From NCBI GenBank assembly GCA_012522135.1, contig JAAYLA010000375.1, positions 20,309 through 84,308 of the forward strand: a stretch of 64,000 bases of DNA. Direction: 5' to 3'. Position numbers and translations under genes: made by a program. Origin of the DNA: Bacillota bacterium (GTDB taxonomy: Bacteria > Bacillota > Limnochordia > DTU080 > JAAYLA01). The notes beneath the pieces were generated by a model, which saw only the letters and a list, made by a program, of their open reading frames with translations, did not search any database and was not told where the DNA came from. The number at the start of each line of letters is the position of its first letter. Position 1 is the stretch's first letter. Below, in pieces: positions 29,234 through 48,529 of this stretch.

Positions 29234-29255
29234 ATGGATTGCAAACCTCTGTTCG

Positions 29256-29269
29256 GGAACAGGTGTTCG
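29256..29269 (+). promoter_or_regulatory. LexA (Cheo-type) operator gGAACAGGTGTTCG, GAAC-N4-GTTC
   Basis: Exact GAAC-N4-GTTC core between the -10 box and the imuB ATG at 29272. Confidence 0.6.
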
Positions 29270-29271
29270 CC

Positions 29272-30324
29272 ATGCAGACCCGCATTCTCCATCTTGTCTG
29301 GCAGCCAAAGCAAACGACGACCGCCGCTTCCCTCTGGAACGACATCCTTTTGCAATGCGCGGCGCAATCGCCTTACGTCGAACCTTGTCATCCGTACGAA
29401 GCCTTTGTAGATCTGACGGACGCCTGCCGGGTCGAAAACCTCCTCTGCGCGCTGAACGCTCTGCAGAAAGAAGGTGAGTTCGGCACTTTCATCCTTTCAC
29501 TGGCGCCGAACAAGTTCATCGCGCGCACGGTATCGCTGCTCGCCCTCGAGAATGCGCTGCCGCCGTCGCTCCATGTCCACCAAAGTGGGCTTGCTGTCTA
29601 TACAGAAACCGCTCCCTCACAGGCAGAGGCACTTCTCGCTTCCCTTTCGGTGCGCTGCCTCTGGTGCATCGATCGGCATGTGCGCGAGCGCCTCGTCGCT
29701 TTGGGAATAACGAAAATCGGCGAATTGCGTCGCGTGCCGCTTCCGTGGCTCGTGCAGACTTTCGGCGCCGCAACGGGGCAAACCCTGTTCGCGCTGGCAA
29801 ACGGTCGCGACGACTCGCCGGTACAGCCCCTCTACCCGCCGCGCACCGTCGAAGTATATTGGGATTTTCCGCCTGAGCAAACCGCTTACGACATGGTCGT
29901 CTTCGACCACGTATTGCGCAGTCTGACGCACAAGCTCGCTGGGCAACTGCATACACTCGGCTTGGCTTGTTCCTCTCTTTTGCTGCGTGTCGAGTCTCCC
30001 GCCGGTGTCGTAGGGCAGGCAGGTAGACTGGACGTTCCCTCTTGCACTTCCGAGGGCCTGGCGCCGCACGTTGAACGCCTCTTTCGAAAAATACCCCTAG
30101 ACGATCGCCTTTACCGGCTACACCTTATTGCAGGCGACCTCAGCCTGCCCGAAAGCAAACAAACTAGTTTTATAAGCAGCCTCATGCCGCCGTCCGCCGC
30201 GCGGGTAGACAAGGTGTTAGCCGGGGTCCGGAAACGCTTCGGAGCACAAGCCATCCAGTGTGCAGGAACGCTCAAAAGGCCAAGGCGCGAGCAAATGCGG
30301 GCGCTCTGGCACGGTACGTCTTGA
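29272..30324 (+). CDS. imuB: ImuB-like inactive Y-family polymerase (mutasome accessory subunit)
   Basis: Y-family fold. The N-terminus reads RILHLVWQPKQ where active polymerases have ILHVDMDAFFA (catalytic Asp lost, ImuB-like LW.DWP). A little-finger-like GRDDSPVQPLYPPRTVEVYWDF is present. It sits immediately upstream of dnaE2. Confidence 0.7.
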   Translation: MQTRILHLVWQPKQTTTAASLWNDILLQCAAQSPYVEPCHPYEAFVDLTDACRVENLLCALNALQKEGEFGTFILSLAPNKFIARTVSLLALENALPPSLHVHQSGLAVYTETAPSQAEALLASLSVRCLWCIDRHVRERLVALGITKIGELRRVPLPWLVQTFGAATGQTLFALANGRDDSPVQPLYPPRTVEVYWDFPPEQTAYDMVVFDHVLRSLTHKLAGQLHTLGLACSSLLLRVESPAGVVGQAGRLDVPSCTSEGLAPHVERLFRKIPLDDRLYRLHLIAGDLSLPESKQTSFISSLMPPSAARVDKVLAGVRKRFGAQAIQCAGTLKRPRREQMRALWHGTS

Positions 30325-30380
30325 ACAAGCCTGTGTACTGCGTTTCTTTTCCTGTTCTGCCGGATGGAAGGAGGAACCCC

Positions 30381-33300
30381 GTGTTTCCCCACTTGCACGT
30401 CCACTCACCTTTCTCGTTTCTTGACGGTGCCAGCAGTATCGAACGGCTTATTCAAACGGCACAAGAACAAGGAGCGAAGGTGCTCGCCCTCACCGATCAC
30501 AACAGCGTCTCGGGAATGGCCCGCTTTGCCGCGGCCGCCCGCGTGGCGGGCATCACGCCCGTCGCCGGAGCCGAAGTCACTCTCGAAGACGGCTACCACC
30601 TCGTCCTCCTGGCCAAAGAACCGGCCGGATACGCCAACTTGTGCCGCCTCCTTACCGCCGCCTACGCCCACGGAGGCCGTGAGGACCCGCGCCTGCCCTA
30701 CTCGGTGCTCCGCCGGTATCACGCAGGTCTTTTCGCCCTTTCGGGTTGCCGGCGCGGCAAAATTCCCTTCAGCATTCTGGAAGGCCGGGATAAGGAAGCT
30801 TTGGCCGCGGCCGAACAGCTCCTTTCCGTCTTTGGCAAGAGCAACTTCGCCCTTGAAATGGACGCGAGCGCGCTGCCCCGCGCCGAATATCTTAACCGGC
30901 GCTTGAATGATCTGGCCGAACATTTGCGCATTCCGATCGTCGCCACCGCCGACGTGCATTACGCTACAAAGGACGACTTTTACCTGCACGATCTGCTCAC
31001 ATGCGTCCGGACCGGGACCACCCTATCGGACGTCCATCCCGAAAGGCGACTGAACGCGGAAAACTACCTGCAGCCGCGCCGCGTCCTGGAACAGCGGTTG
31101 GCCGCTTATCCGCAGGCAATAAAAAACGCCTTTCGCATCGCGGAAATGTGCGCCGATGCGTTTCCGAACGGTCAACCCCAACTTCCCGAATTCCCGGTAC
31201 CGTCCGGCCACACGCCCGCCGAGTACTTGCGCTACCTCACGTACCAAGGAGCTGAAAAGCGCTACGGCCGCATCACACGGGTCATTCGCGAACGCCTCGA
31301 GCACGAGCTGCATATTATTACCAAGCTCGGCGTTGAATCGTATTTTCTTATCGTATGGGATCTCGTGCGCTACGCCCGCCGGCGCGGCATCCGCCACGCA
31401 GGGCGCGGTTCGGCGGCCGATTCCGCCGTCGCCTACGCCCTGCACATCACCAATGTCGACGCCATAGAGCGCGGCTTGCTTTTCGAACGCTTTCTTAGCC
31501 TGGAACGCTCCCAGATGCCCGACATCGACGTCGACTTCGACGCCCGCTACCGCGACGAGATCGCCGATTACGTCTTCCGGCGCTACGGTGCCGAGCACGT
31601 CGCCTCGGTCTGCACGTTCAGCACCTATCGCGCCCGCTCTGCTTTGCGCGACCTGGGCAAAGCCATGGGTTTTTCCCCGGATGAACTCGATGCGCTGGCC
31701 AAATCCGTACCCCACATCCCCGCCGACGGCGTGCGCAAGGCCATTTCGCGCGTTCCCGAGCTGCGCGACAGCGGCCTGCCCTTTGAACGCTACGAAACGC
31801 TCTTTGCCTTTTGCGAGCAGGTGGCGGGTTTCCCCCGGCACATCGGCACTCACCTAGGGGGACTTGTGATCAGCAAAGATCCTATTACCACGCTCTCGCC
31901 CGTCCAGACGTCGGCCAAAGGCGCTGCCATCATCCAGTTCGACAAGGATGACATCGAAGCGCTGGGCCTTATCAAGATCGATTTGCTCTCCCTGCGCACC
32001 CTCTCTGCGCTCGAAGACGCGGTGGTCACCATCAACAGACAAAATGCGCGCCACGGCCGGCCCGCCGTCGATCCCGAAAACATTCCGCAAGGTGACGAAG
32101 CCACTTACGAGATGCTCCGCGCGGGCGAAACGATCGGCGTCTTCCAGCTCGAAAGCCCAGCCCAAAGGGGCCTGCAGACACGCTTGGAAGCCAATAAGAT
32201 GGAAGATCTCGTCGCCAGCGTCGCGCTCATACGTCCTGGCCCCATCCAAGGCCAGATGGTCGAGCCGTTCCTGGCCCGCCGCAGCGGCTTGGAACCCGTC
32301 ACCTACTTGCATCCGGCCCTGCGCCCGATCCTCGAAAAAACGTACGGCGTGGTGTTGTACCAGGAGCAGGTGATCGAAATCGCTACCGTTATCGCGGGGT
32401 TTACGGCAGGCGAAGCCGACAAATTGCGCAAGACAATGACACACTATCGCTCAGAACGGGAAATGGAGCGCATCGGCGAACACTTCATCGCCCGCGCCAT
32501 GGGCCGTGGCATCGACCGTCAAACCGCCGAGACGATCTTCTCGTACATCCGCGGGTACGCCGGGTACGGTTTCTGCGAAGCCCACGCGGCCGCCTTCGCC
32601 GACACGGCTTACAAAACGGCTTATCTTATACGCCATTACCCCGAGCACTTCTACGCGGCTATTTTGAACCACTACCCCATGGGCTTTTACCCTCCCAACA
32701 CCATTTGCCTTGCGGCCAGAAGGCGCGGGGTCACCATTTTACCGCCCGACATCAACGCGAGTGAAGACGTATGCACCGCAGCCGACGGCAAGATCCGCAT
32801 CGGCCTCAAGTTCGTCCGTACCATGGAATCAGCCGTCTTGGAGCAAATTTTGGCGGACCGCCGGCGGGGCGGCCCCTACACGTCTTTACCGAACTTCCTA
32901 AGCCGCGTCCGCATCCCTAAAGACACCTTGGAACAGCTCATCTTGGGCGGTTGCTTCGACACCTTCTCGCCCAACCGACGGGCACTCCTCTGGCAAGTAC
33001 AGGCTTACCTGGGCTGGTACGCTCCCCAAGGTGCCAGAAGGCAGCAAGGCCCCGGCCGTCCCGTGCAAAGCAGCCTGGTCCAGGTGGGTCTGCAGGTCAG
33101 GGAAGACTCCGGCACGCCGATCGACGACTTCCCGCCCTACGAGCGCCATGTATACGAGTACGCGGCCCTCGGCTTCAACCCGGGAGAGCACTTCATGAGC
33201 CATTTTCGCAAGCACCTTCTCGCCTGCGGCGCGGACGACACTCGCAGCATACGCAGGCGCCCCCGCGGGAAGTGGGCGAAGATCGCAGGGCTTGTGATCC

Positions 33301-33524
33301 GCCCCCACAAACCGCCGACGAAAAGCGGACGGACCGTCGTCTACTTTTCTCTGGAAGACGAGTTCGGACAAGTCGACGTCACAGCTTTCGAAAACATTTA
33401 CCAAAAGTACGGCCGGCTCATCTACCACGCGCCGCTCCTTTGGGTCGAAGGTCCCGTAGAATGGCGCGGCAGGGGCGTCAGCGTCATCGCGCGACGCATC
33501 GCGGCCTTCCGTTCACCGACCTGA
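30381..33524 (+). CDS. dnaE2: error-prone DNA polymerase DnaE2 (ImuC)
   Basis: GTG start after GGAAGGAGGAA; N-terminal PHP domain FPHLHVHSPFSFLDGAS; ~1047 aa without a tau-binding tail; downstream of imuB and the LexA boxes. Confidence 0.85.
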   Translation: MFPHLHVHSPFSFLDGASSIERLIQTAQEQGAKVLALTDHNSVSGMARFAAAARVAGITPVAGAEVTLEDGYHLVLLAKEPAGYANLCRLLTAAYAHGGREDPRLPYSVLRRYHAGLFALSGCRRGKIPFSILEGRDKEALAAAEQLLSVFGKSNFALEMDASALPRAEYLNRRLNDLAEHLRIPIVATADVHYATKDDFYLHDLLTCVRTGTTLSDVHPERRLNAENYLQPRRVLEQRLAAYPQAIKNAFRIAEMCADAFPNGQPQLPEFPVPSGHTPAEYLRYLTYQGAEKRYGRITRVIRERLEHELHIITKLGVESYFLIVWDLVRYARRRGIRHAGRGSAADSAVAYALHITNVDAIERGLLFERFLSLERSQMPDIDVDFDARYRDEIADYVFRRYGAEHVASVCTFSTYRARSALRDLGKAMGFSPDELDALAKSVPHIPADGVRKAISRVPELRDSGLPFERYETLFAFCEQVAGFPRHIGTHLGGLVISKDPITTLSPVQTSAKGAAIIQFDKDDIEALGLIKIDLLSLRTLSALEDAVVTINRQNARHGRPAVDPENIPQGDEATYEMLRAGETIGVFQLESPAQRGLQTRLEANKMEDLVASVALIRPGPIQGQMVEPFLARRSGLEPVTYLHPALRPILEKTYGVVLYQEQVIEIATVIAGFTAGEADKLRKTMTHYRSEREMERIGEHFIARAMGRGIDRQTAETIFSYIRGYAGYGFCEAHAAAFADTAYKTAYLIRHYPEHFYAAILNHYPMGFYPPNTICLAARRRGVTILPPDINASEDVCTAADGKIRIGLKFVRTMESAVLEQILADRRRGGPYTSLPNFLSRVRIPKDTLEQLILGGCFDTFSPNRRALLWQVQAYLGWYAPQGARRQQGPGRPVQSSLVQVGLQVREDSGTPIDDFPPYERHVYEYAALGFNPGEHFMSHFRKHLLACGADDTRSIRRRPRGKWAKIAGLVIRPHKPPTKSGRTVVYFSLEDEFGQVDVTAFENIYQKYGRLIYHAPLLWVEGPVEWRGRGVSVIARRIAAFRSPT

Positions 33525-34380: not shown

Positions 34381-34396
34381 TGTGATGTATCGCACA
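34381..34396. promoter_or_regulatory. CRP-like site TGTGATGTATCGCACA (TGTGA-N6-gCACA)
   Basis: One mismatch from the CRP consensus palindrome; ~113 bp upstream of the DUF2249a-nnrS1 operon, in the divergent region with the SDR gene. Confidence 0.45.
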
Positions 34397-34508
34397 TTAC
34401 TTTGTGGTCCAACCGGCTGCACCGCCTTCCGGAGCGTGCCACAATGAAAGTGCACGACGTTCCCGCAGACCGCACACGGAAAAAACTGTCCCGAGGGAGG
34501 AATGGCCG

Positions 34509-34769
34509 ATGCATCCTTGGCCCGAGTTGACCCGGCGCATCGAGCTCGACAACCGCGGACTTGAGCCCCCGGAGCCGATGGTGCGCATCTTGACCGCCCT
34601 GAAACATTTAGGGGACGGCGAGTACATTTTGGCCCACAACGATCGTGAGCCCATGTTTCTCTATCCACGGCTCGACGAGATGGGTTACGTGTACCGGGCC
34701 GAGCTGCAGGAGGACGGTTCTTGCCTCATTGCCATCCGCAAACCTCATGGCGGGGAGACAAGACCGTGA
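34509..34769 (+). CDS. DUF2249 domain protein (paralog a)
   Basis: LDNRGLEPPEPMVRILTALKHLGDGEYILAHNDREPMFLYPRLDEMGY matches the DUF2249 pattern; GAGGGAGGAA RBS. Confidence 0.7.
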   Translation: MHPWPELTRRIELDNRGLEPPEPMVRILTALKHLGDGEYILAHNDREPMFLYPRLDEMGYVYRAELQEDGSCLIAIRKPHGGETRP

Positions 34770-36040
34770 ACTTGCCCGGACTGGACGTAGAAAGCAGACC
34801 CCGGCCGGCGGTGCCGTCCCTGTACATCCAGACGGGCCTGCTTTTTCTCATCGGCGCGGCCGCGGTAATCGCTCTGCACCCTGGAGCGCTCATGGCCTCG
34901 CCCCGCCACAACCCGGTGACGCTCGTGGTCACCCACATGCTGGTTCTGGGCTTCGGCACGCTCATCACCTTCGGGGCCCTCGAGCAAATGGTACCGGTCA
35001 TCACAGGGCGCAAGGTCACCTCGGAACGCTACAGCCGCACGGCTTATGCCCTGTTTGTTCCCGGACTCCTGCTGCAGCTCGCGGGCTTTGCCGCGTGGCA
35101 GCCCTATCTGATCGCGGCCGGCGGAACCCTCATCACCTTGGGTACGGCGCTCTTTACGCTGCCTTACGTTCCGACCCTGTGGGAGCGCCTGCGGAGCGAC
35201 TTGACTGCTCCGTTCATCTTCTCGTCCCTCATCTACGTCAATTTGACCGTGTTCCTGGGTGTCGCGTCGGCCGTGCAGCTCAAAACCCTCTGGTGGCCGT
35301 GGCTGTTTTGGCACGGGCTGCCCTTCCACCTCATACTGGGAGGCCTCGGCTGGTTCACGCAGATTATCATCGGGGTGTCCTACAAGCTCATTCCTATGTT
35401 CATTACTACGACCGGCGCCGGTGATCTCCATGTGCGGCGCGTCTGCGCCTCGTTCAACATAGGCCTTCTGCTTGCCCTGCTCTCGGCCGCAGGCAGCTGG
35501 ACGGCCGGCGCCGCGGCAGGGCTGACCGTGGTAGGTGTGACATGTGCCGTGTACGCTTGGGATGTGCGCGGGATGGTCAAACGACGCATCCGCCGGCGCA
35601 TCGGGGCGGGAATGAAGCAAAGCCTGGTCGCCGTGTTGTACTTGATCCTTGCGGCTGCTCTGTCCGCCCTGCTCCTGGCCCGGGCCCTGCCCATAGACGG
35701 CCTGTCCGCAGACCGGTGGGTCGTCGTCGCCGGCCTGCTCTTCGCCTGCGGCTGGGTGGGGAGCGTGATCCTTGGCATGCTGTCCAAAATCGTGCCCATG
35801 CTCGTCTGGCTCGATCTGTTTGCCGGCCGCGTGGGTGAGCGGGATACGCCTACCATAGCCCAGTTGATCGACGAACGAGCCGTCGGGTTGGGAGGAATCG
35901 GCTACCACGCAGGTCTTCTTACCCTTGCCGTCGCTTTCGCCGCGGGACACCCGGTCGCTGCCACATGGGCGGCCGCATTGTTTCTCCTCGGCGTGGTCGT
36001 CCTGGCCGGCACGCTGATCGGAGTCTGGTCGGCGCGCTGA
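34766..36040 (+). CDS. NnrS-like 12-TM membrane protein (paralog 1)
   Basis: The GTG start overlaps the DUF2249a stop (GTGA). ~12 TM helices with conserved His; paralogous to 36726..37979 (NPVTLVVTHMLVLGFGTLITFGALEQMVPV vs HPLILGVVHATVLGWGVSVALGSLQQMAPV). The NnrS family assignment is tentative. Confidence 0.55.
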   Translation: MNLPGLDVESRPRPAVPSLYIQTGLLFLIGAAAVIALHPGALMASPRHNPVTLVVTHMLVLGFGTLITFGALEQMVPVITGRKVTSERYSRTAYALFVPGLLLQLAGFAAWQPYLIAAGGTLITLGTALFTLPYVPTLWERLRSDLTAPFIFSSLIYVNLTVFLGVASAVQLKTLWWPWLFWHGLPFHLILGGLGWFTQIIIGVSYKLIPMFITTTGAGDLHVRRVCASFNIGLLLALLSAAGSWTAGAAAGLTVVGVTCAVYAWDVRGMVKRRIRRRIGAGMKQSLVAVLYLILAAALSALLLARALPIDGLSADRWVVVAGLLFACGWVGSVILGMLSKIVPMLVWLDLFAGRVGERDTPTIAQLIDERAVGLGGIGYHAGLLTLAVAFAAGHPVAATWAAALFLLGVVVLAGTLIGVWSAR

Positions 36041-36110
36041 GACCGGTCTTCACGTATCGAGGCTGGGTGGCATGAACGTACTCGCATTACCGGACTAGGA
36101 GGAAGGAAAT

Positions 36111-36416
36111 GTGGAAGCGCGTTTGGATACCGTGCGGGAGGCGCTGCGCAGCGTCGTCGATCCCGAGCTGCATTTGAACATCGTCGACTTGGGGCTGATT
36201 TACAGCATTAAAGAGTCCGCCCCGGGAAAAGTGCACATCACGATGACGCTCACGACTCCGGGCTGCCCCGTCGGTTCGGCGATCCTGCAGGCCGTCGAGC
36301 GAGTCGTGGAGCAGCTGCCCGGCATCGAGGAAGTCGACGTCGAGCTGACCTTTGAACCGCGCTGGACACCGGAGTTCATCACAGACGAAGGCCGCCGCTT
36401 CCTGAACATGCTGTGA
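36111..36416 (+). CDS. DUF59 / MIP18-family Fe-S cluster assembly protein (SufT-like)
   Basis: VVDPELHLNIVDLGLIYSI...TLTTPGCP, typical of the PF01883 family; GTG after AGGAGGAAGGAAA. Confidence 0.75.
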   Translation: MEARLDTVREALRSVVDPELHLNIVDLGLIYSIKESAPGKVHITMTLTTPGCPVGSAILQAVERVVEQLPGIEEVDVELTFEPRWTPEFITDEGRRFLNML

Positions 36417-36489
36417 GGTCGGAGCGGAAGTGCAAAGCGGTCACCCCGATCGAACGTCTCCTGAATCAACGTTCTTGGAGGTGATAAGA

Positions 36490-36720
36490 ATGACAGAGCC
36501 CATTGTATTGGATGTGCGGGAAGATCTGCGCCGAGGACGCGAGCCCTTTCACAAGATCATGGCAGCCGTCGACGCTCTGGCGCCCGGTCAGGAGCTCATT
36601 CTCCTCTGTTCGCTCGAACCCCGCCCTTTGTATAAAGTGCTGGGCGCGAAGGGCTTTTCTCACCGCACAGAGGAAAGCGACGACGGGGACTGGAAGGTCA
36701 CGTTTTTCCGGCCGGAGTAG
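36490..36720 (+). CDS. DUF2249 domain protein (paralog b)
   Basis: VLDVREDLRRGREPFHKIMAAVDALAPGQELILLCSLEPRPLYKVLGAKGF; GGAGGTGA RBS. Confidence 0.7.
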   Translation: MTEPIVLDVREDLRRGREPFHKIMAAVDALAPGQELILLCSLEPRPLYKVLGAKGFSHRTEESDDGDWKVTFFRPE

Positions 36721-36725
36721 AACGC

Positions 36726-37979
36726 TCAGCGCATCAAAGTCCGCAACAAGTTGCCGGTGGCGACCAGGGCGCCGAGGCTCATCAGCACCGCATACCCTGT
36801 GACGTTGAACCCGAAAGGCGCGACCGCCAAGAGCCCGATCAAACCGGCATTATAAAGCGCAAGTCCGAGCCAGGCCGCGCCCTCGTGCACCATGTGACGA
36901 AAAGAGGGGACGCCTGGCTCGTCCGTTCGGTGCCAGTATTTATTGTGCCAGACGAAAAAGGGCAGGATGCGGTGAAGGTATCCTAGAATGGCGCAGCTGA
37001 GCCACCCGAAAAGACCGGCCAGACCCAACCACGCTACGAACCGGCCGTTTGCGCCCAGCCACGGAAAGGCGATAGCCCCCGCCGCGACCGCAGCTCCATA
37101 CAGGTGGGACAGCCGCACGTAGGTGACCATCGGATGCATCCGGACAGTCGGCCTGGGGGCAAAAACGGCCCGGGTGTCCCATAAAAAGAGAAGGACCGAC
37201 GCCGCGACCACGACGCGGCCCGCCTGCGCAAGCCAAGGAAGGCCCGCACCGCCGCCGAAGGCTAAGGCCCCGATTCCCGCGTGGAGCATCACGACGACGG
37301 GCCGGTCGAAGTTGGGAGCGAACTTCTTCGGCGTCAGACCGAAAAAGGGCAAAAGGTGGTACGAGATGCCCAGAACGAGCATGGCGAACCAGCCCACGAG
37401 CCCCGCCGCGGTGTGAGCGGCAAAGGCAGCTTGCCATCCGGATCCCAGCCAATTCGCAGCAAGGTTGACGGCGAGCGCGGCGCCGAGGAGCACCGTCACG
37501 GCCAGGTAGAAAAGGGCACTCTTTACGAAGGGCCGGATGCGCGACGCCGCTGGACTGCCGCCCGGAGCCATCGTGCGGACCACATTGACCAGGGCCGTCC
37601 CGACCGCCAGGAGCACGAGAAGGCTGCCGAGCACGAGGAGAACCGGGGCAAAGCGCACCATCCCCCACACCAGACAGGCGACTCCTATGCCGAAGCCGTA
37701 GGCACCGGCCGCGGCCAGGTGTTCACTGTAAAGCCCCGTACCGAAGACGACGGGAGCCATCTGCTGCAGCGAGCCGAGCGCTACGCTGACGCCCCACCCG
37801 AGCACCGTCGCGTGCACCACGCCCAGGATGAGCGGATGCCGGTACAGCCCCGACTCGTACGGAACGGCGGCGAAGGGTAAGAGCACCGCGACCCCCGCAA
37901 AGGCTAGGAGCCCGAACGCAAAGTAAGGGCCTAATGCGAACAGGGGGACGAGATTGTCGCGGGTGACCCGGATGCCCAC
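36726..37979 (-). CDS. NnrS-like 12-TM membrane protein (paralog 2)
   Basis: The GTG start sits directly after the TAA of the upstream regulator gene; paralog of 34766..36040. Confidence 0.55.
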   Translation of the reverse strand: MGIRVTRDNLVPLFALGPYFAFGLLAFAGVAVLLPFAAVPYESGLYRHPLILGVVHATVLGWGVSVALGSLQQMAPVVFGTGLYSEHLAAAGAYGFGIGVACLVWGMVRFAPVLLVLGSLLVLLAVGTALVNVVRTMAPGGSPAASRIRPFVKSALFYLAVTVLLGAALAVNLAANWLGSGWQAAFAAHTAAGLVGWFAMLVLGISYHLLPFFGLTPKKFAPNFDRPVVVMLHAGIGALAFGGGAGLPWLAQAGRVVVAASVLLFLWDTRAVFAPRPTVRMHPMVTYVRLSHLYGAAVAAGAIAFPWLGANGRFVAWLGLAGLFGWLSCAILGYLHRILPFFVWHNKYWHRTDEPGVPSFRHMVHEGAAWLGLALYNAGLIGLLAVAPFGFNVTGYAVLMSLGALVATGNLLRTLMR

Positions 37980-38666
37980 TTACGCCTCACTCCACGATTG
38001 CAAGATGAGGGGCTTGAGCACGATGATGCGGGAACCCTCGATCCGCAAGACTCCCTCCCGCTGAAACTGCTGCAAAAGGCGGGTGGCCGTCTCGCGTGAG
38101 GCCCCGATCCAACTGCCCAGCTCTTGCCGCGTCAACGACAAATCGACCTCGATGCCCTCCTCGGTGGCCCGGCCGTGGCGCTCGCACAGATCGAGGATGC
38201 GGCGGGCCAAGCGGGCCGCCACGTTCTGCAGCGACATCCGCGTAATCTCCTCCTGCGACTCGCGCATCCGTTGGGCCAAGAGTCGCAGCATGCGCATGAG
38301 GATGTCGGGATTCGCCAGGGCGATGCGCTCGAAGTCGGAAAACTGGATTTGAGCGAGTTCGGAATCTTCCAACACCTCGGCGTTCGCCGGGTACGGACCG
38401 CCGTCGAGGAACGGAACGACGGCTACGGGTTCGCCGTCTCCGAGGAGGTGTAAAATCTGCTCCCGCCCGTCGGCGGCCAACCGATACACTTTCACCCTGC
38501 CCGTGTAGATGAAAAACAGCGCCCGGCTCGGCTCGCCTTCCACGAAGAGGATTTGTCCCTTGCGGTAGCGCGCCGTGACGACGACGGGCTCGAGAAGTCT
38601 TCTCTGCTCGTCCGACAGCCCGGAGAAAAAGGGAATGCGGCGCAAGACGTACTGTGCACGCTCCAT
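37980..38666 (-). CDS. Crp/Fnr-family transcriptional regulator (CRP-like recognition helix)
   Basis: N-terminal cNMP-binding-like beta-roll and a C-terminal HTH with RETATRLL (R-E-xxx-R as in E. coli CRP); ATG after AGGAGGG. Confidence 0.8.
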   Translation of the reverse strand: MERAQYVLRRIPFFSGLSDEQRRLLEPVVVTARYRKGQILFVEGEPSRALFFIYTGRVKVYRLAADGREQILHLLGDGEPVAVVPFLDGGPYPANAEVLEDSELAQIQFSDFERIALANPDILMRMLRLLAQRMRESQEEITRMSLQNVAARLARRILDLCERHGRATEEGIEVDLSLTRQELGSWIGASRETATRLLQQFQREGVLRIEGSRIIVLKPLILQSWSEA

Positions 38667-38772
38667 GGGGCCCTCCTGTACCGGTGCGGGATGTTTCCAG
38701 TCTACCAGATCGACGGGCCCGAAACCACTGTGACAGGCATCGGTAGGCAGGTGCCGCGGGGCGGACGCGCGT

Positions 38773-38788
38773 GTGTGATCCGGATCAC
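38773..38788. promoter_or_regulatory. perfect CRP-type palindrome TGTGATCCGGATCACA (TGTGA-N6-TCACA)
   Basis: 16-bp perfect inverted repeat in the divergent region between the Crp-family regulator and nirK. Confidence 0.6.
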
Positions 38789-38919
38789 AGCGCGGTGAGA
38801 GAATTCGCATCGTTGCCTACGCCGGCGGTCACTGATCCTGCGCCGTGCCTTTGATACGCTGGAACGGGAAGACGAAGCAGGAGGAAACAATCGCTCGCGG
38901 GCCCCGGGAGGTGCGTTGT

Positions 38920-40290
38920 ATGGAACGTTTCGGTCGCAACACCGTTTGGCTCACCTTGGTCATAGCAGGCCTCATACTAATCGTCGGACTGCTTGACCGC
39001 GGAGCGGGCACACACAGCGCGCCTACCGGTTCTCAGGCCGCAGTGCCCGCGGGCGATGAAATCGTAGTAGAACTGGCGATGATGCGATTCGAACCGAGCC
39101 GCATACAAGTTCCCCCCGGCACCACCATTCGCTTCGTCAATCGCGACCCCATGTTGCACAACGTAGTGCATGCGCGGCCGGACACCCTCGGCAAAGGGCC
39201 TGAAAAGTTCCGCTCGCCGCAGCTCGGTCCGGGAGACAGCTGGACCCTCACCCTGACGGTGGAGGGCGTGTACGATATTCTGTGCGACATCGCGGGCCAC
39301 TTCCTCGCCGGCATGGTCGGCCAAATTGTGGTGACCCAGGATACGGCTGCCCGGGAGGCCGAGCCCGCCGGAACCGCCGGGCAGCCCGTCGCCCGCGATC
39401 CCCGGGACCTGCCCGGCCCCATTGATCGGGATGAGCCCACGGTCGTTCGTTTCGACCTGCGTACCGTGGAAGTGGAAGGCCAGCTCGCGGAAGGCATCAC
39501 TTTCACCTACTGGACGTACAACGGTACCGTGCCCGGTCCCCTGCTGCGCGTGCGCCAGGGCGATACGGTCGAGCTGTACCTTACGAATGATGCGTCGAGC
39601 ACCCAACCCCATTCGATCGATCTGCACGCCGTCACGGGTCCCGGAGGCGGCGCCGCCGTGACACAGGTCGCCCCCGGCGAGACGAAGGCTTTCCGCTTCA
39701 AGGCCCTGCATCCCGGCGTCTACGTATACCATTGCGCGACGCCGCACATCCCGACCCACATCGCCATGGGCATGTACGGGCTAATCGTCGTCGAGCCGCC
39801 CGAGGGACTTGTGCCCGTCGACCACGAGTTTTACGTGATGCAGGGCGAAGTCTACGCCGATCTGCGCCCCGGTTCCCAAGGCCACGCTGCGCACGATCCG
39901 GCGGCGATGTGGGATGAGCGACCGAATTTCGTCGTGTTCAACGGCCAGTTCCAAGCTCTCACCGGAGACCGCGCCATGCGGGTCAACGTCGGCGACACGG
40001 TGCGCATCTTCTTCGGTGTCGGTGGGCCGAACTTGCCGTCGTCGCTGCACTTGATCGGTGAAGTATTCGACCGGCTCCATCCGGAAGGCGCGGCAGAACC
40101 CGCAACCCACGTACAGACCACGCTCGTACCCGCCGGCGGCGCCACGTGGGTTGAGTTCACCGTCGACGTTCCGGGAACCTACACGCTCGTCGACCACTCG
40201 CTCAGCCGGGCCGTCGACAAGGGAGCCTTGGCCACGATAGAGGCCGTAGGCCCCGGCGCACCGGACATTTTCGCCGCGCTCGACGACTGA
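38920..40290 (+). CDS. nirK: copper-containing nitrite reductase NirK with an N-terminal cupredoxin domain
   Basis: ATG after GGGAGGTG. The N-terminal cupredoxin carries H..C....H....M ligands (HNVV...CDIAGHFLAGM). The NirK core has HSIDLH (T1/T2 His and catalytic Asp) and HCATPHIPTHIAMGMYG. Confidence 0.85.
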   Translation: MERFGRNTVWLTLVIAGLILIVGLLDRGAGTHSAPTGSQAAVPAGDEIVVELAMMRFEPSRIQVPPGTTIRFVNRDPMLHNVVHARPDTLGKGPEKFRSPQLGPGDSWTLTLTVEGVYDILCDIAGHFLAGMVGQIVVTQDTAAREAEPAGTAGQPVARDPRDLPGPIDRDEPTVVRFDLRTVEVEGQLAEGITFTYWTYNGTVPGPLLRVRQGDTVELYLTNDASSTQPHSIDLHAVTGPGGGAAVTQVAPGETKAFRFKALHPGVYVYHCATPHIPTHIAMGMYGLIVVEPPEGLVPVDHEFYVMQGEVYADLRPGSQGHAAHDPAAMWDERPNFVVFNGQFQALTGDRAMRVNVGDTVRIFFGVGGPNLPSSLHLIGEVFDRLHPEGAAEPATHVQTTLVPAGGATWVEFTVDVPGTYTLVDHSLSRAVDKGALATIEAVGPGAPDIFAALDD

Positions 40291-40412
40291 ACAGCACTTC
40301 GGACGGACGGGCCTTCGGAGCACCGGCAGGAAACAGGTCCAGCGCACAAGAATAACAGGTGGGACGGGCCCGTCAGGTCGGCCTGCAGCTTGAGGAGGTA
40401 CGCCCCCGTCCG

Positions 40413-43400
40413 ATGAGTTTGCAACGTGTGTCCGTGCACCGTCCCGTCGCGCTCTCCATGTGCGTTCTCGCCGCCTTGGTCATCGGCCTGATCTCCCTTG
40501 ATCGCATCGGCATCGATCTTTTGCCCAATTTGGAGTATCCTACGCTGGCCGTTGTGACCGTTTACCCGAATGCGGATGCCGAGAGCGTCGAAAGCGACGT
40601 CACGCTGCCTATTGAACGCACTTTATCGACCGTATCGGGACTGCGGCAGCTTGAGTCGCTGAGCATGGAGAACGCGTCGCTCGTCATGGCCACCTTCGAG
40701 TGGGGCACCGACTTAGGCGACGCCTTCGAGGAAATCAACTCGCTGCTCAGCGTGGCGAGCCTTCTGCTTCCATCCGATGTCCAGCGCCCGATCGTCGTCA
40801 AGCTCGATCCGTCCCAAGTGCCCGTTCTCAATATCGCGGTGACCGGCGAGACGGACCTTGTTGCGTTGACGGGCCGCGTAGAAAGGGAAATCGTGCCGGT
40901 CATCGAGCGCGTTCCTGGCGTCGCCCAAGTCAGTGTAGCCGGCGGCGCGTACCCGCAGATCAGCGTCTACTACGACACCCAGGCACTCCGGGAAAGGGCG
41001 CGGCTCAATCCCCTGGATATCCAGGCGATGCTGCAATACCAAAACGCCGTCGTACCCGCGGGTACACTTGAGGTACGTCCGGAAGAACTGGGCCTTGAGG
41101 CGGGTGACGTACGCCGGTTCCCGCTGCGCGTCGGTGCCAACTTGGAAAGCATCGACGACCTGCGCAGCCTCGTCATCTCCGTCGAACAGCCCGCGACGGG
41201 AGGCGACGCGTTCGGCCTGTCGGCGCTGCTTCCGCCCGACGTCATCCGCCTCGGCGATGTGGCGCAGATCGTCGAAGAAGTGCGGCGCGTGGAAGGGCAC
41301 ACGCGGGTCAACGGCGAGCCGGCCGTTGTCCTGCGCGTGCTGAAAGAGAGCGAAGCGAACACCGTCGAAGTCTCCCGGGGGGTCCTCGCGGCGGTCGCTG
41401 CCTTGACCGGGCAACTTGCGGGCGATCTAACCCTTGAGATCGTCACCGACCAGGCGCAATTCATCAACGAGTCCATCGACAATTTGTCCTGGAGCGCCCT
41501 TGTCGGTGCCGTCCTCGCCGTCCTGGTCCTCACCCTTTTCCTGCGTTCGTGGCGCGATATCGTCGTCATCGCGGTGGCGATCCCGCTGGCGTTTGCCGTC
41601 GCCGTCACCTTGCTTCATTTCGGCGGTTACACCCTCAACTTGATGACCCTGGGCGGACTGGCCATTGCCGTAGGAATGCTCGTCGACAATGCGATCGTCG
41701 TGCTCGAGAACATTTTCCGCTTGCGGGGCCTTGGCCTGTCGCCTAAGGAGGCGGCCGTCCAGGGGGCGAGCGAGATGGCGCCGGCGATCGTCGCGTCGAC
41801 GCTTACGACGGTAGCCGTATTCGTCCCGCTTATCTTCATGCGCAGTTTAGCCGGGTATCTGTTCAAGGAGTTGTCCCTGGCCGTCGTCTGCGCGCTGGCG
41901 GCGTCGCTGCTCGTTGCTCTCACCGTCGTTCCGATGCTAGCGGCCTACCTCCCCGATCGGTCGAGGAGCACCGCGCGGGCAGCCACTTCCCGGCCGGCGG
42001 AGGGCGTCCATCAAGGGATCGCAGATCGGTTGACCCCCCACTACGCCCGGGCGATTCGGAAGGTGCTCCGTCGTCCTTGGCTTGGGGTCGTGATCGCGGG
42101 CGCCTTCACCATAAGCCTGGTGTTCCTCCCCAGGCTCCTCGACGTCGGTTTCGTGCCCGAGATGGACGGCAGCCTCGTGACAATCGACATTCAGCTCCCG
42201 CCGGGCACGCCCCTGCACACCACGGACAAGGTCGTGCGCGACGTCGAAGCCTATCTGGAAGCCCTGCCCGAAGTCGCTCTGCTGTCGGTGCAGGTGGGAA
42301 ACCAAGGCGGCACGGATTATCTCAGCATCGTACAGGAGATGCCGGTCAACCAGGCCCGGGTTCACGCGCTCCTTGTCCCGCCCGGCGAGCGCTCTCGCTC
42401 GTCCCATGAACTGGCCCGGATCATCGGCAGCGAACTGCCCCTGCCCCCGGAGGCCGCCGTGCGGATCAGCGCCGACCGGGCCGTCGATGCACTCGGCGAT
42501 GATTTCGCGAGCGGGCTGACGCTGGAGATCCTCGGCCCGGAATGGGATGTACTCCAGTCCGTCGCGGGCCGCATCGCCGAAGAGCTGAGACGGACCCCCG
42601 GCTTCGTCAACGTCACTTCCACCGCAGAAGATGTGAACCAAGTGCTCTTTTTTGAAGTAGATAGGGTGCAGGCCGGAAGAGCGTTGCTGCCGGCCGGGCA
42701 GGTCGGCCTGACGGTCCGCCTGGCGCTGACGGGTCTTCAAGCGACTACGCTGCACGTCGACGGGCGGTCGGTGCCGGTAGTCATCAAGCCCAGTCCGAGC
42801 GAGACCGAAAATCTGGAGGCCTTGCAGTCGCTGCGGGTGTGGAATTTGCAAAGCGACGCGACAGGCATCCCGCAGGCGGCCCGCTTCGAAGCGATCACCA
42901 CGGCGGACGCCCCGGTCATCACCGATGCGCCGAGAACCATTCGGCACCTCGATCGACAACGGGTCGCGACGGTGAAAGCCCAGCTCGACGGCGTTGACCT
43001 CGGCAAGGCGCGGCGGCTGGCCGAGCAGATCGTGGCTGCTACGGATCTTCCAGCAGGTTACGAGGTGCGAATGGCAGGAATTCATAGGACGCTGGATGAA
43101 TCAATTAAGGAGTTGGTTCTTGCGCTAGGGCTTGCGGTGCTGTTCGTGTACATGGTGATGGCAGCCCAGTTCGAGTCCTTGCGGTATCCGGGCATCATCA
43201 TGATTACCGTGCCCCTGTCGGCGGCGGGAGGCTTCTTCGCCTTGTGGTTGACCGGCCAGCAGCTGAACGTACCGGCCTTCCTCGGACTCCTCCTGCTCGT
43301 CGGCATTGCGGTGAACAACGGCATCGTTCTGGTCGACACGATCGGCCGCTTCCGGCGTTCGTTGCCCCTGGAAGAGGCGATCGTCGAAGCGTGCCGCGTG

Positions 43401-43613
43401 CGGCTCCGGCCCATTTTGATGACCGCGCTGACAACGATTCTGGGGCTGGTTCCGCTCGCCCTCGGGTGGGGAGAAGGCACCGAAATTCAGGTTCCCTTGG
43501 CCCTGGCAGCGCTGGGCGGGTTGATCTCGGGAACGCTACTCACCCTTTTTGTGGTGCCGGCCTTTTACCGGCTCTTCTCTGGCACCATTGAGACGCCCGC
43601 ACGGGCCGATTGA
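40413..43613 (+). CDS. RND-family efflux transporter (AcrB/HAE-like)
   Basis: ~1060 aa, 12 TM plus two large periplasmic loops; the start is ambiguous (40359 GTG-type or the 40413 ATG). Confidence 0.8.
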   Translation: MSLQRVSVHRPVALSMCVLAALVIGLISLDRIGIDLLPNLEYPTLAVVTVYPNADAESVESDVTLPIERTLSTVSGLRQLESLSMENASLVMATFEWGTDLGDAFEEINSLLSVASLLLPSDVQRPIVVKLDPSQVPVLNIAVTGETDLVALTGRVEREIVPVIERVPGVAQVSVAGGAYPQISVYYDTQALRERARLNPLDIQAMLQYQNAVVPAGTLEVRPEELGLEAGDVRRFPLRVGANLESIDDLRSLVISVEQPATGGDAFGLSALLPPDVIRLGDVAQIVEEVRRVEGHTRVNGEPAVVLRVLKESEANTVEVSRGVLAAVAALTGQLAGDLTLEIVTDQAQFINESIDNLSWSALVGAVLAVLVLTLFLRSWRDIVVIAVAIPLAFAVAVTLLHFGGYTLNLMTLGGLAIAVGMLVDNAIVVLENIFRLRGLGLSPKEAAVQGASEMAPAIVASTLTTVAVFVPLIFMRSLAGYLFKELSLAVVCALAASLLVALTVVPMLAAYLPDRSRSTARAATSRPAEGVHQGIADRLTPHYARAIRKVLRRPWLGVVIAGAFTISLVFLPRLLDVGFVPEMDGSLVTIDIQLPPGTPLHTTDKVVRDVEAYLEALPEVALLSVQVGNQGGTDYLSIVQEMPVNQARVHALLVPPGERSRSSHELARIIGSELPLPPEAAVRISADRAVDALGDDFASGLTLEILGPEWDVLQSVAGRIAEELRRTPGFVNVTSTAEDVNQVLFFEVDRVQAGRALLPAGQVGLTVRLALTGLQATTLHVDGRSVPVVIKPSPSETENLEALQSLRVWNLQSDATGIPQAARFEAITTADAPVITDAPRTIRHLDRQRVATVKAQLDGVDLGKARRLAEQIVAATDLPAGYEVRMAGIHRTLDESIKELVLALGLAVLFVYMVMAAQFESLRYPGIIMITVPLSAAGGFFALWLTGQQLNVPAFLGLLLLVGIAVNNGIVLVDTIGRFRRSLPLEEAIVEACRVRLRPILMTALTTILGLVPLALGWGEGTEIQVPLALAALGGLISGTLLTLFVVPAFYRLFSGTIETPARAD

Positions 43614-43715: not shown

Positions 43716-44123
43716 ATGGCTAGAGCAGTACGTCGTCAAACGCCCGCACAGAGGCTTGCTACCTTGTTCGGGGCAACCTTGCTGATTCTGATCTTGGCGC
43801 TATTAGTGGTCTCGTTCGTACAGGGAAACCGCCGGACGGTTTCCGACAGCCCGATGCAGCGTCTGATCTCGGCACCCACGGCTGACCTCTTCTACGTATA
43901 TGAGACAGCGAGGGTTGAGGACGGGGTCATGTACGTGACGGGCCAGTTCGTCGGTGTGCCCAATGTCACGCCCGAAACCGCCGAGGAATGGCAAGAGCAC
44001 ACGAAAAAGGTCGCCGAGGTCATCGTGAAGGAGCTCAAGGGTCTTCCTACCGTTTCGGCTCTCTCGCTGAAGCAATACCACCGGGGCGAACTCGTGGGCG
44101 AGATTACACTCCCCGTGAAGTAG
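43716..44123 (+). CDS. membrane-anchored hypothetical protein (N-terminal TM, 135 aa)
   Basis: AAGGGGGAT RBS; TM LATLFGATLLILILALLVVSFV; followed by a terminator. Confidence 0.45.
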   Translation: MARAVRRQTPAQRLATLFGATLLILILALLVVSFVQGNRRTVSDSPMQRLISAPTADLFYVYETARVEDGVMYVTGQFVGVPNVTPETAEEWQEHTKKVAEVIVKELKGLPTVSALSLKQYHRGELVGEITLPVK

Positions 44124-44358: not shown

Positions 44359-44763
44359 TTACCGCTTCGAGAACTGAGGCGCCCGGCGGGCCTTCTTCAG
44401 ACCGTACTTCTTCCGCTCCTTCATACGCGGATCGCGGGTGAGATAGCCGGCCTTCTTCAGTACGGGCCGCAGCTCGGGATCGGCCTCCACAAGCGCACGC
44501 GCGATGCCGTGCCGGATCGCGCCGGCTTGTCCGCTCAAGCCGCCGCCGTACACGTTGACCAGCACGTCGAAACGGTCCTCAACGCCGGCCGTCTTGAGCG
44601 GCGCGCGAACCCGCATCTCGAGGATCGGACGGCCCAAGTACTCACTGATGGGCTTTCCGTTGATGATGATCTTGCCGTCGCCGGGGACTAACCGAACCCG
44701 TGCCACGGAGCACTTGCGGCGGCCGGTTCCCCAGTACATGTATTCTGGAGCTGCAGTAGCCAA
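44359..44763 (-). CDS. rpsI: 30S ribosomal protein S9
   Basis: C-terminal ...[17 protein letters not shown], typical of S9. Confidence 0.95.
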
Positions 44764-44787
44764 AGGGCAGCCAACCTCCTCCTAAAA

Positions 44788-45238
44788 TTACGCGTTGATC
44801 TCCAACACTTCGGGCTGCTGAGCCTCGTGCGGATGGGTGTCTCCGCGGTACACCTTCAGCTTACGAATTTGCCTGCGCCCCAGCCGGTTGTGGGGGAGCA
44901 TGCCCCATACCGCAAGCTCGATTAGGCGCTCGGGCCGCCGCTCCAGCATCTCTTGCGCCGTAGTCCTCCGGAGCCCGCCCGCATACCCGGAGTGCCGGTA
45001 ATACATCTTCTGTTGCAGCTTGCGCCCAGTGAGCCGGACCTTGTCTGCGTTGATCACAATGACGTAATCGCCGGTGTCAACGTGCGGCGTAAAGGTGGGC
45101 TTATGCTTTCCGCGCAGGATGGCTGCGACCTGGCTGGCCAAGCGTCCAAGGGTCTTGCCTGTCGCGTCAACCACGTACCACTTCTTGTCCAGGTCTTCCT
45201 TCTTCGCCTGGAAAGTTCGTTGCCTCACCGTGTTTCCC
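44788..45238 (-). CDS. rplM: 50S ribosomal protein L13
   Basis: GTG start (V in ...[23 protein letters not shown]) after GGGGGA; the ORF-track N-terminal extension is rejected. Confidence 0.9.
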
Positions 45239-45355
45239 CCTGTCTGTCGTGGACAAAAGCGTTCAAAGGTGCGCCGAAGGCGGATGAATACAAAGAACCG
45301 GACGGACGTCCGGCGAACTGCCAACAACCATTCTAACCTACTCCGTCATTTGCTG

Positions 45356-48453: not shown

Positions 48454-48529
48454 CCTGCTCCGTCCGTAGATAATGAAAGCGCAGAGTTGCCCCTGCGCCC
48501 GACAGATCGTAGAACGCCCTCACGAAGGG

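Follow-up and report, generated by a model that had tools for sequence, protein, structure and literature searches.

The DNA described here encodes a widespread module, comprising an oxidase-fold membrane protein, DUF2249 and DUF59 proteins and a CRP-type regulator, which in this instance is wired to a copper nitrite reductase (Table 1). The cluster, which lies in a window of 64 kb (the whole stretch of DNA analysed), forms one predicted regulon with transcription units for DUF2249a, membrane protein 1, DUF59 and DUF2249b, for the regulator with membrane protein 2, and for nirK. We regard the identity and architecture of the cluster and its proteins as very well founded; the best explanation overall, in which the regulon is combined with a protective mechanism, is one on which our judgement is evenly balanced. 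All of the genes and couplings listed in an earlier note on this DNA were found in the sequence, and the same genes were called independently on two metagenome contigs with this locus.

Table 1. Genes and candidate regulatory sites of the cluster (window coordinates).
Feature	Position	Strand	Remarks
Candidate CRP-type box TGTGATGTATCGCACA	34381..34396		one mismatch to TGTGA-N6-TCACA; 113 bp 5' of DUF2249a
DUF2249a, 86 aa, TusA-like fold without the TusA cysteine	34509..34769	+	PF10006 E 1e-16
Membrane protein 1, 424 aa, 12 helices, HCO/NOR subunit-I fold, two-histidine type	34766..36040	+	
DUF59 / FeS_assembly_P protein, 101 aa, TTPGCP cysteine motif	36111..36416	+	PF01883 E 4e-22
DUF2249b, 76 aa	36490..36720	+	PF10006 E 4e-18
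Membrane protein 2, 417 aa, 12 helices, HCO/NOR subunit-I fold	36726..37979	-	
Crp/Fnr-family regulator, 228 aa, single cysteine, recognition helix SRETATR	37980..38666	-	cNMP_binding E 3e-22, HTH_Crp_2 E 7e-17
Candidate CRP-type box TGTGATCCGGATCACA, perfect palindrome	38774..38789		in regulator/nirK divergent intergenic region
NirK copper nitrite reductase, 456 aa, N-terminal membrane anchor and cupredoxin domain	38920..40290	+	TIGR02376

The gene junctions are as had been proposed: the TGA of DUF2249a overlaps the GTG start of membrane protein 1 as GTGA, the regulator gene ends in TAA immediately before the GTG of membrane protein 2, and the cupredoxin-NirK gene diverges from that for the regulator. 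The ATG codons of DUF2249a and DUF2249b are preceded by GGGAGG and GGAGG, respectively, and the Pfam assignments of both DUF2249 proteins and of the DUF59 protein were upheld (Table 1).

Comparison with other loci reveals which of these genes belong together. Among 80 loci with relatives of the membrane proteins, from about ten phyla, DUF2249 was present in 77 and DUF59 was beside the membrane gene in 74, nearly always within 1 kb, counts which were made with HMMs of our own that had been iterated over these loci, and which are not independent events, because many of the loci are from related Gemmatimonadota; Pfam confirmed a subset (15 DUF2249 and 12 DUF59 proteins in a crude set of gene calls for 24 loci). 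Over the same 80 loci, the density of DUF2249 ORFs was 8.15 per 10 kb within 1 kb of the membrane gene vs 0.04 beyond 3 kb, and that of DUF59 ORFs 5.55 vs 0.04, i.e. about 140-200 times denser, which argues that the clustering is not due to chance. The proposal that DUF2249 is a dedicated partner of such membrane proteins is thus strengthened, with 118 of the 122 nearby DUF2249 copies lying on the same strand as the membrane gene. The idea that the layout is exceptional, with an inverted duplication and an isolated DUF59 gene, did not hold, since the plus-strand order DUF2249-membrane-DUF59-DUF2249 is a standard architecture, this order or DUF2249-membrane-DUF59 being common across loci. DUF59 is a core component of the module, as is also manifest in a natural fusion (P0173) with DUF59 at the C-terminus of the membrane domain. 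The one unusual element is the second membrane paralog, a lineage-specific addition co-transcribed with the regulator. In one other locus (L005) a DUF2249 closely resembling DUF2249b lies directly 3' of the membrane protein 2 homologue, on the same strand.

Both membrane proteins are two-histidine relatives of the catalytic subunit of the haem-copper oxidases (HCO) and NO reductases (NOR), and are, as the earlier note held, paralogous (29% identity over 402 residues, E 1e-22). They belong to a large family without a Pfam model, the profile of which matches 3875 clusters at 50% identity, and which has a 12-helix HCO/NOR fold made of three homologous four-helix units; the units match one another with an hhalign probability of 99% (E about 1e-16), H56 of membrane protein 2 being aligned to H189. 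Among 168 family members only two histidines are 100% conserved, i.e. those in helices 2 and 6 (H57 and H188 in membrane protein 1, H56 and H189 in membrane protein 2), and these, with the fold, are the basis on which haem binding is predicted. The positive-inside rule indicates an N-in/C-in orientation (K+R 11 vs 3 and 17 vs 4), and one family member (P0034) is a tandem fusion of two domains of this family.

The closest structures are those of CcoN and NorB, with respect to which the histidines in helices 2 and 6 are at the expected depth, although sequence identity is 11-13% and no window protein matched PF00115 in the Pfam search. This raises the question of whether the oxidase-fold proteins are themselves a non-canonical NO reductase or terminal oxidase, reducing the NO made by NirK in place of a missing NOR, with the extra histidines of membrane protein 2 as a second metal site. 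The regulator box common to nirK and the retention of five further histidines in the membrane protein 2 subfamily, to which they are specific (H208, H233, H292, H336 and H345), are consistent with such a role, as is the finding of no NOR gene within the 64 kb window, although one may exist elsewhere in the genome. However, four of the six canonical ligand histidines, the helix-7 and helix-10 pairs, are missing from the proteins, the extra histidines lie near the cytoplasmic helix ends rather than at active-site depth, and, in contrast to cbb3 CcoN and cNOR NorB, there is no adjacent gene for a cytochrome c or CuA partner subunit, i.e. an electron donor of the NorC, CcoO or CoxB type. We therefore consider catalytic NO or dioxygen reduction by these proteins very unlikely.

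A precedent is provided by the HCO-homology (HCOH) three-unit proteins, reportedly described by Pei, Li, Kinch and Grishin in 2014 (Protein Sci 23:1220). Like these, the present proteins have 12 helices in three homologous four-helix units, the HCO subunit-I fold and only two conserved histidines; in some members the first unit is weakly similar to COX1 helices 9-12, and in genomes they are associated with DUF2249 and with genes of denitrification or NO. The same work is cited for the link between DUF2249 and HCOs in a haloarchaeal study (PMC11218638). The membrane paralogs had been tentatively assigned to NnrS (PF05940), a haem- and copper-containing protein of NO-responsive regulons which they resemble in length (about 400 aa), in their 12 helices and in having few conserved histidines. 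This identity was not sustained: PF05940 gave no match at E <= 0.1, no sequence similarity to NnrS was detectable, and hhalign gave a probability of 0.1% against a genuine NnrS (363 bits on PF05940), which is encoded by its own gene next to that of a family member. We know of no report of NnrS travelling with DUF2249 and DUF59. NnrS, whose expression accompanies that of nir and nor genes and is governed by Crp-family NO regulators (PMC1274295), is nonetheless likely to be a functional analogue of the membrane proteins.

With regard to the small partners, DUF2249 has the TusA fold with conserved Asp/Arg replacing Cys; DUF2249a matches TusA weakly (E 1.8e-4) and has a proline at the TusA Cys position. 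The best NCBIfam matches of the DUF59 protein are SUF_assoc and SufT, its scores being under the SufT and PaaD equivalog cut-offs, and the nearest solved chains are 2cu6 and 1uwd. No signal peptides were found on the DUF59 and DUF2249 proteins, which we infer to be cytoplasmic.

The regulator reached none of the NCBIfam equivalog cut-offs, but its recognition helix matches that of CRP (SRETVGR). Rodionov et al. associate R180/E181 with the TGTGA motif and with NO-related HcpR regulators without FNR cysteines (PMC1274295), and the TGTGA-N6-TCACA boxes of both promoter regions fit the CRP-like helix. Four CRP-type sites with at most one mismatch occur in the 64 kb, vs 0.87 expected (four were reached in 0 of 100 shuffles), and the only perfect one is that shared by nirK in the regulator/nirK intergenic region. 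Both boxes in Table 1 are conserved in two related loci (L001 and L002), two others (L005 and L007) have perfect boxes in promoter regions, and box density is 1.41 per 10 kb within 2 kb of the membrane gene, 0.30 beyond and 0 inside the gene. The inclusion of a Crp-family regulator in the unit is borne out by the presence of a homologue in 42 of 83 loci.

The nitrite/NO context proposed for the module is plausible, given the CRP box of nirK, NirK homologues in 6 of 83 other loci and the published induction of DUF2249 genes by 3-9 log2-fold during haloarchaeal denitrification (PMC11218638); NnrS, NirS, haem d1 and NorR-like genes also lie near some membrane-family relatives. However, in 77 of the 83 loci there is no NirK within 6 kb, and aerobes, e.g. 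Thermogemmatispora, are among the hosts, implying that the module is not strictly tied to denitrification.

A mechanism by which the module protects iron centres from NO falls, in our estimation, slightly short of an even chance. The cysteine-poor regulator, of the CRP/HcpR/DNR kind, would bind the boxes before both divergent promoter regions and, in the presence of nitrite/NO, turn on nirK along with the module. Each membrane protein would carry a single haem (or metal) between its two histidines, at the depth of the redox centre of the oxidases, and, NnrS-like in action rather than respiring NO, would sense NO or hand electrons or a ligand to partners bound at its cytoplasmic side. There, DUF59, with its Fe-S handling fold, and DUF2249 may protect, repair or re-metallate iron and Fe-S centres, damage to which would come from NirK-derived NO. 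The two membrane paralogs may form a heterodimer.

Work on Thermus thermophilus suggests that the module could instead transduce signals. DrpA, a single DUF2249 domain like DUF2249a and DUF2249b, is induced with N-oxide respiration under the Crp-family regulator DnrT and affects both regulation and enzyme activity, and DrpB has a DUF1858 and two DUF2249 domains (PMC6282519). By analogy, the membrane protein would sense NO, O2, nitrate or redox state through haem and DUF2249 would pass the signal on to the Crp-family regulator, as has been suggested for DrpA/DrpB and DnrS/DnrT, so tuning nirK expression with no role in repair. Loss of DrpA/DrpB deregulates DnrS/DnrT and nar transcription, and this mainly regulatory phenotype favours a sensor, as do the co-transcription of the regulator with membrane protein 2, the frequency of Crp-family genes with the module, and the DrpB-like proteins adjoining family members in L004 and L057. 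However, about half of the loci lack a Crp gene within 6 kb, no DrpB-type protein is encoded in the window, and DUF59, as constant a partner as DUF2249, has no obvious signalling role. Moreover, Thermus drpAB double mutants have no active nitrate reductase although the protein is present at normal levels, so that a role in maturation is indicated as well. DrpA is also reported to be periplasmic, in contrast to the apparently cytoplasmic partners here, and the Thermus study makes no mention of an oxidase-fold membrane partner or DUF59 (PMC6282519). On balance, we regard signal transduction as unlikely.

The inactive nitrate reductase of the Thermus mutants is also in keeping with metallocentre assembly, in which iron, Fe-S, haem or copper would be delivered to or inserted into respiratory enzymes (e.g. 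NirK or Nar) as these are being made, irrespective of any damage by NO. SufT-like maturation factors are among the members of the DUF59 family, some relatives (L039) have DUF59 fused to a Mrp/NUBPL P-loop Fe-S carrier, a haloarchaeal Fe-S carrier bears DUF2249 (PMC11218638), and SCO1/SenC and LpqE-like (PF04314) genes are nearby in L003 and L005. Assembly is nevertheless distinctly unlikely in our view, because in most loci the module has no respiratory enzyme gene nearby. Further, NirK needs only copper and matures outside the cytoplasm, whereas the DUF59 and DUF2249 proteins lack signal peptides.

The NirK itself scores 354.5 bits on TIGR02376, vs a cut-off of 296.3, with a Copper-bind match to its cupredoxin domain (E 2e-21). 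Its best solved relative (2dv6_A, 354 bits) is the Hyphomicrobium denitrificans enzyme, a likeness that concerns this neighbouring enzyme only and not the DUF2249/DUF59/membrane module. The two have an N-terminal cupredoxin fusion and the same domain order, although the window NirK differs in having an N-terminal membrane anchor.

Seven genes occupy the interval between the SDR gene and the RND pump in the window, and all of the genes and couplings that the earlier note listed there are present, as judged from Pfam and NCBIfam matches, from the gene junctions and from agreeing gene calls on two metagenome contigs that bear this same locus. Both DUF2249 proteins and the DUF59 protein score above the PF10006 and PF01883 cut-offs, respectively, and the core of NirK (query residues 110-446) aligns with 2dv6_A. 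The two membrane proteins, membrane 1 and membrane 2, share 29% identity across 402 residues (E 1e-22), and DUF2249a and DUF2249b are also 29% identical.

Positions of the cluster genes, CRP-type boxes and flanking genes in the window
Feature	Position	Strand	Details
nuo genes (nuoI/H/G/D-like), AddA/AddB, L13/S9, truA, rpoA, secY	526-7994, 9534-16977, 44359-54890		flanks
SDR gene	ends ~34293	minus	left border of cluster
One-mismatch box copy	34381-34396		113 bp upstream of DUF2249a
DUF2249a	34509-34769	+	PF10006, E 1e-16; 60.9 bits vs cut-off 29.5
Membrane 1, 424 aa	34766-36040	+	GTG start overlapping DUF2249a stop as GTGA
DUF59	36111-36416	+	PF01883, E 4e-22; 78.8 bits vs cut-off 23.5
DUF2249b	36490-36720	+	PF10006, E 4e-18; 65.6 bits vs cut-off 29.5
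Membrane 2, 417 aa	36726-37979	-	GTG directly after regulator TAA
Crp/Fnr regulator, 228 aa	37980-38666	-	TAA abuts membrane 2 GTG
Perfect box TGTGATCCGGATCACA	38774-38789		regulator/nirK intergenic region
Cupredoxin-fused NirK	38920-40290	+	divergent from regulator; TIGR02376 354.5 bits vs cut-off 296.3

Comparison across genomes reveals that DUF2249, DUF59 and the oxidase-fold membrane family constitute one tightly linked module, which extends from Bacillota to Campylobacterota and often includes a CRP-type regulator. A scan of one genome per species gave at least 464 loci, of which the best 80 were kept for counts; these span Bacillota/Limnochordales, Ktedonobacteria (including the cultured Thermogemmatispora and Ktedonosporobacter), Gemmatimonadota, Verrucomicrobiota, Bacteroidota/Ignavibacteria, Campylobacterota, Myxococcota, Nitrospiraceae and others. 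Among the tractable organisms that possess the module are Thermogemmatispora, Sulfurimonas and Gemmatimonas. With HMMs built from the window and the first loci, and then iterated on those same loci, DUF2249 was detected in 77, DUF59 in 74 and both in 72 of the best 80 of these at least 464 loci. Within the same best 80, 122 DUF2249 ORFs lie within 1 kb of the membrane gene, 118 of them on the same strand, and a single one lies beyond 3 kb, corresponding to 8.15 (≤1 kb) versus 0.04 (>3 kb) ORFs per 10 kb, so the proposed association of DUF2249 with such membrane proteins is a genuine enrichment; of the DUF59 ORFs, 83 lie within 1 kb and a single one lies more than 3 kb away. Pfam matches among 148 crudely called neighbours from 24 loci comprised DUF2249 (15), DUF59 (12), Crp/Fnr (11), DUF1858 (5), Cupin (5), single-unit COX1 fragments (3), NnrS (2), sigma-54 activators (2) and NirS (1).

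Written with d (DUF2249), M (membrane gene) and F (DUF59), the frequent gene orders are dMF (15), FMdd (10), dMF'd (7) and dMFd (5). The plus-strand operon of the window is thus a standard dMFd unit and not, as the earlier note had supposed, one half of an unusual inverted duplication. Two family members found in the search of representatives are natural fusions: P0173 (536 aa) carries DUF59 at the cytoplasmic C terminus of the family domain and P0034 (862 aa) comprises two family domains in tandem. Both fusions support physical coupling, and would be useful constructs for structural work.

The assignment of the membrane paralogs to the NnrS family does not stand. At E ≤ 0.1, Pfam and NCBIfam contained no match to either, not even PF05940 (NnrS), on which, in the same library, a genuine NnrS encoded 2.4 kb from a family member in the related locus L079 scores 363 bits; alignment of the family profile with this NnrS by hhalign gave a probability of 0.1% over 8 aligned columns, with a single-sequence target that limits sensitivity. 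Given that L079 encodes an NnrS as a separate gene, dissimilar to the family at profile level, the term 'NnrS-like' applies to the fold and the presumed role only, and not to family membership. Solved structures in the Protein Data Bank, searched by sequence with each paralog and also with the family profile, gave no match even at E 10, and tblastn against plasmids gave none. A word-seeded homology search returned only 33 relatives, mostly from metagenomes plus one Limnochordales genome; a profile search of 1.84 billion cluster representatives (50% identity) recovered 3875 clusters with E ≤ 1e-3, of which 833 have E ≤ 1e-30. Large as the family thus is, it lacks a model of its own, and its members are publicly named either "hypothetical protein" or "cbb3-type cytochrome oxidase subunit 1", the latter label being misleading.

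Models compared with cbb3 CcoN (3mk7_A) and cNOR NorB (4xyd_A) as reference structures show that the membrane proteins adopt the 12-helix subunit-I fold of the haem-copper oxidases and of the NO reductase (NOR) catalytic subunit, and the positive-inside rule gives an N-in/C-in orientation. The three four-helix units are mutually homologous (hhalign unit versus unit: probability 99%, E 7e-17 to 1e-15), although these scores are possibly inflated, since hydrophobic profiles were aligned globally. In this alignment the histidines of helix 2 and helix 6 coincide, and the third unit has no counterpart. Both histidines, H56 (helix 2) and H189 (helix 6), are conserved in all 168 full-length members, in which no other histidine column exceeds 49% and Q73, G196, W344 and the P-F motifs at helix ends are nearly invariant. 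Proteins of three such units, with two histidines and possibly one haem, were reportedly described in 2014 by Pei et al. under the heading 'HCO homology', NnrS being one such family. The window family shares both the three homologous four-helix units and the two conserved histidines, and presumably belongs with them. The same analysis is said to have recognised the family and its association with DUF2249; together with the published connection between DUF2249 and denitrification, this means that proteins of this kind are already known, though uncharacterised.

A canonical oxidase or NOR is ruled out by the set of ligand histidines and by the missing partner subunits. When the six oxidase ligand histidines were mapped by helix number and depth, neither an HH pair in helix 7 nor an H-x-H in helix 10 was found, and no electron-entry subunit (NorC, CcoO or CoxB) is adjacent in the locus gene table, with just two cytochrome c matches among the 148 neighbouring proteins scanned. 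Neither window protein matches the COX1 profile (PF00115); of the relatives, P0124 (56 bits) and P0173 (41.5 bits) exceed its cut-off of 34.8 bits and the others fall below it. A non-canonical NO reductase we regard as very improbable.

Loci with a second family copy are rare: apart from the window's lineage, only two show one, and only weakly. Membrane 1 is similar to the broadly distributed core of the family; membrane 2 falls into a Limnochordales-type subfamily, which has five additional histidines in the direction of the cytoplasmic ends of its helices. In the related locus L005, a close homologue of DUF2249b lies downstream of the membrane 2 homologue on the same strand, which implies a rearrangement between the two lineages.

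The conserved motifs of the DUF2249 proteins are LDxR and PxPL and their predicted fold is that of TusA. DUF2249a scores 21.8 bits on PF01206 (TusA), under the 28.6-bit cut-off, and a Protein Data Bank sequence search with it found nothing. DUF2249a has LEPPEP at the TusA CPxP position, such that proline replaces the TusA cysteine (the TusA counterpart being LRCPEP), and 144 of 190 DUF2249 domains contain no cysteine. The DUF59 protein retains, as seen in its translation, the cysteine of the T-x-x-C-P motif as TTPGCP, and it falls below the equivalog cut-off of both SufT models (TIGR02945, 102.1 bits versus 143.4; TIGR03406, 91 versus 202.6).

Further arrangements of these small proteins were seen in related loci. 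In the Limnochordales relatives L003 (9993-11047) and L005 (10444-11498), a DUF2249 gene overlaps that of a membrane protein of YwiC-like type (PF14256); a CRP-type box, perfect or nearly so, lies upstream, and a Crp gene is close by. DUF2249 thus partners more than one kind of membrane protein. In the same two loci (L003 5960-7419, L005 4298-5703), DUF59 is translationally coupled to a different membrane protein of 360-382 aa, which has no Pfam match and no similarity to the family or to NnrS; the 382-aa protein adjoining DUF59 in L003 was accordingly rejected as a member of either, and these proteins may represent another unclassified partner family. L005 also encodes a 518-aa protein with a weak COX1 match (8909-10465) within the same cluster, and in that of L004 a 151-aa single-unit COX1 fragment (11999-12454) adjoins DUF2249 genes.

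The regulator has, in its 228-aa translation, a single cysteine, located in the DNA-binding half, and hence is not an FNR-type Fe-S oxygen sensor; its score on the Fnr model is 90.9 bits versus 228. Its recognition helix, SRETATR (R-E-x-x-x-R), fits the SRETVGR of CRP and, together with the TGTGA-N6-TCACA boxes at 38774 and 34381, predicts DNA specificity of the CRP/HcpR type. Four sites with at most one mismatch occur in the window versus 0.87 expected, a number reached in 0 of 100 shuffles; those at 1770, inside nuoH, and at 17418, between addB and a dapA-like gene, were set aside as having no convincing promoter position. Boxes recur in the matching intergenic regions of related loci (perfect in L005 and L007), and over all loci there are 1.41 of them per 10 kb up to 2 kb from the membrane gene, 0.30 further away and none in the gene itself; 42 of 83 loci have a Crp homologue. 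The FNR-type box TTGA-N6-TCAA occurs in the window at one distant site, equal to chance expectation, and promoter and terminator scans of the cluster did no better than on shuffles. The same consensus is reported for Desulfovibrio HcpR by Rodionov et al. (PMC1274295), who connect it with R180/E181 and describe NO-related regulators of the Crp family as lacking the FNR cysteines. Many related Gemmatimonadota loci (e.g. L024 3903 and 4747; L045 3879 and 4690) carry the variants CGTGAC-N4-GTCACA and TGAGAC-N4-GTCACA ~1-2 kb ahead of the membrane gene, a recurring pair that suggests a conserved two-site promoter architecture.

With respect to nitrite and NO, the nirK promoter region of the window carries the regulator box, 6 of 83 other loci, spread over several phyla, have a NirK homologue within 6 kb, and NnrS, NirS, haem d1 and NorR-like genes are occasional neighbours of family genes. 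The vicinity of most loci contains no N-oxide reductase, and aerobes are among the hosts; the module is better regarded as serving stress response or maintenance than as a respiratory enzyme. In Haloferax mediterranei all four DUF2249 genes are upregulated 3-9 log2-fold under denitrification, in a study that cites Pei et al. 2014 as linking DUF2249 with the oxidase superfamily (PMC11218638). In Thermus, DrpA is a DUF2249 protein and DrpB comprises DUF1858 and two DUF2249 domains; anoxia plus nitrate induces both through DnrT, a Crp-family protein. Transcription is deregulated when they are lost, and the nitrate reductase made by the double mutant is inactive (PMC6282519). A sensing relay to the regulator modelled on DrpAB is conceivable for the window, if rather unlikely; the DrpB architecture is absent from it and present in loci L004 and L057. 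Assembly of metallocentres for respiratory enzymes appears improbable.

Established are the fold and orientation of the membrane proteins, their two histidines, their tight linkage to DUF2249 and DUF59, the fusions, and the regulator with its boxes, and on these we base a tentative mechanism, to which we give not quite even chances. H56 and H189 of the membrane protein would hold a single haem or metal between them, as deep in the membrane as the redox centres of the oxidases; DUF59, with its Fe-S handling fold and TTPGCP cysteine, would dock on the conserved LLPFF and ILPFxVW helix ends of the cytoplasmic face, as would DUF2249; and the three together would shield iron and Fe-S centres, or restore them, when NirK yields NO. 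A similar protection or restoration of iron centres has been proposed for NnrS and the RIC proteins. More speculatively, and in our view quite improbably, the two-histidine proteins, possibly as a heterodimer of the paralogs, might be the missing NO-handling partner of NirK where a canonical NOR is absent, in which case they would be single-haem membrane enzymes or NO sinks of a new class, passing NO or electrons to cytoplasmic DUF2249 and DUF59; if so, a biochemical function would follow for DUF2249 and for a family of several thousand sequence clusters.

New here are the almost obligatory association with DUF59, the pair of natural fusions, the conservation of the CRP-type box and the size of the family and, in the window's lineage, the second paralog co-transcribed with the regulator and the nirK with the same box. 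DUF2249, free-standing DUF59 and the oxidase-fold membrane family are each common and each unexplained, and the window, in which module and nitrite reductase share a perfect regulator box, is a compact test case. Solving the module would clarify how iron centres are protected in bacteria that make or meet NO, and what role a minimal two-histidine haem-copper oxidase fold plays, with implications for the evolution of the oxidases and NO reductases.

The description of the cluster as an 'island' is not apt in the sense of a mobile element, since its GC level is even with that of the flanks and its neighbours are housekeeping genes. Directly upstream of the SDR gene (29239-33524), a weak ImuB-type (IMS_HHH) match followed by a PHP/DNA polymerase III alpha gene (1014-1088 aa) looks like an imuB-dnaE2 damage-inducible mutagenesis cassette. 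The RND (ACR_tran) pump (40359-43613) lies immediately downstream of nirK on the same strand, a position kept in L001 and L002, the contigs with the same locus. Between it and rpsI is a 135-aa ORF (43716-44123) with an N-terminal hydrophobic segment and no Pfam match, at the position of which a 119-aa gene is called in L001. A single 769-aa ORF further downstream (46144-48453) encodes two ABC ATPase domains together with a transmembrane component of CbiQ type, and is either a fused ECF transporter or the product of adjacent genes merged by ORF calling.
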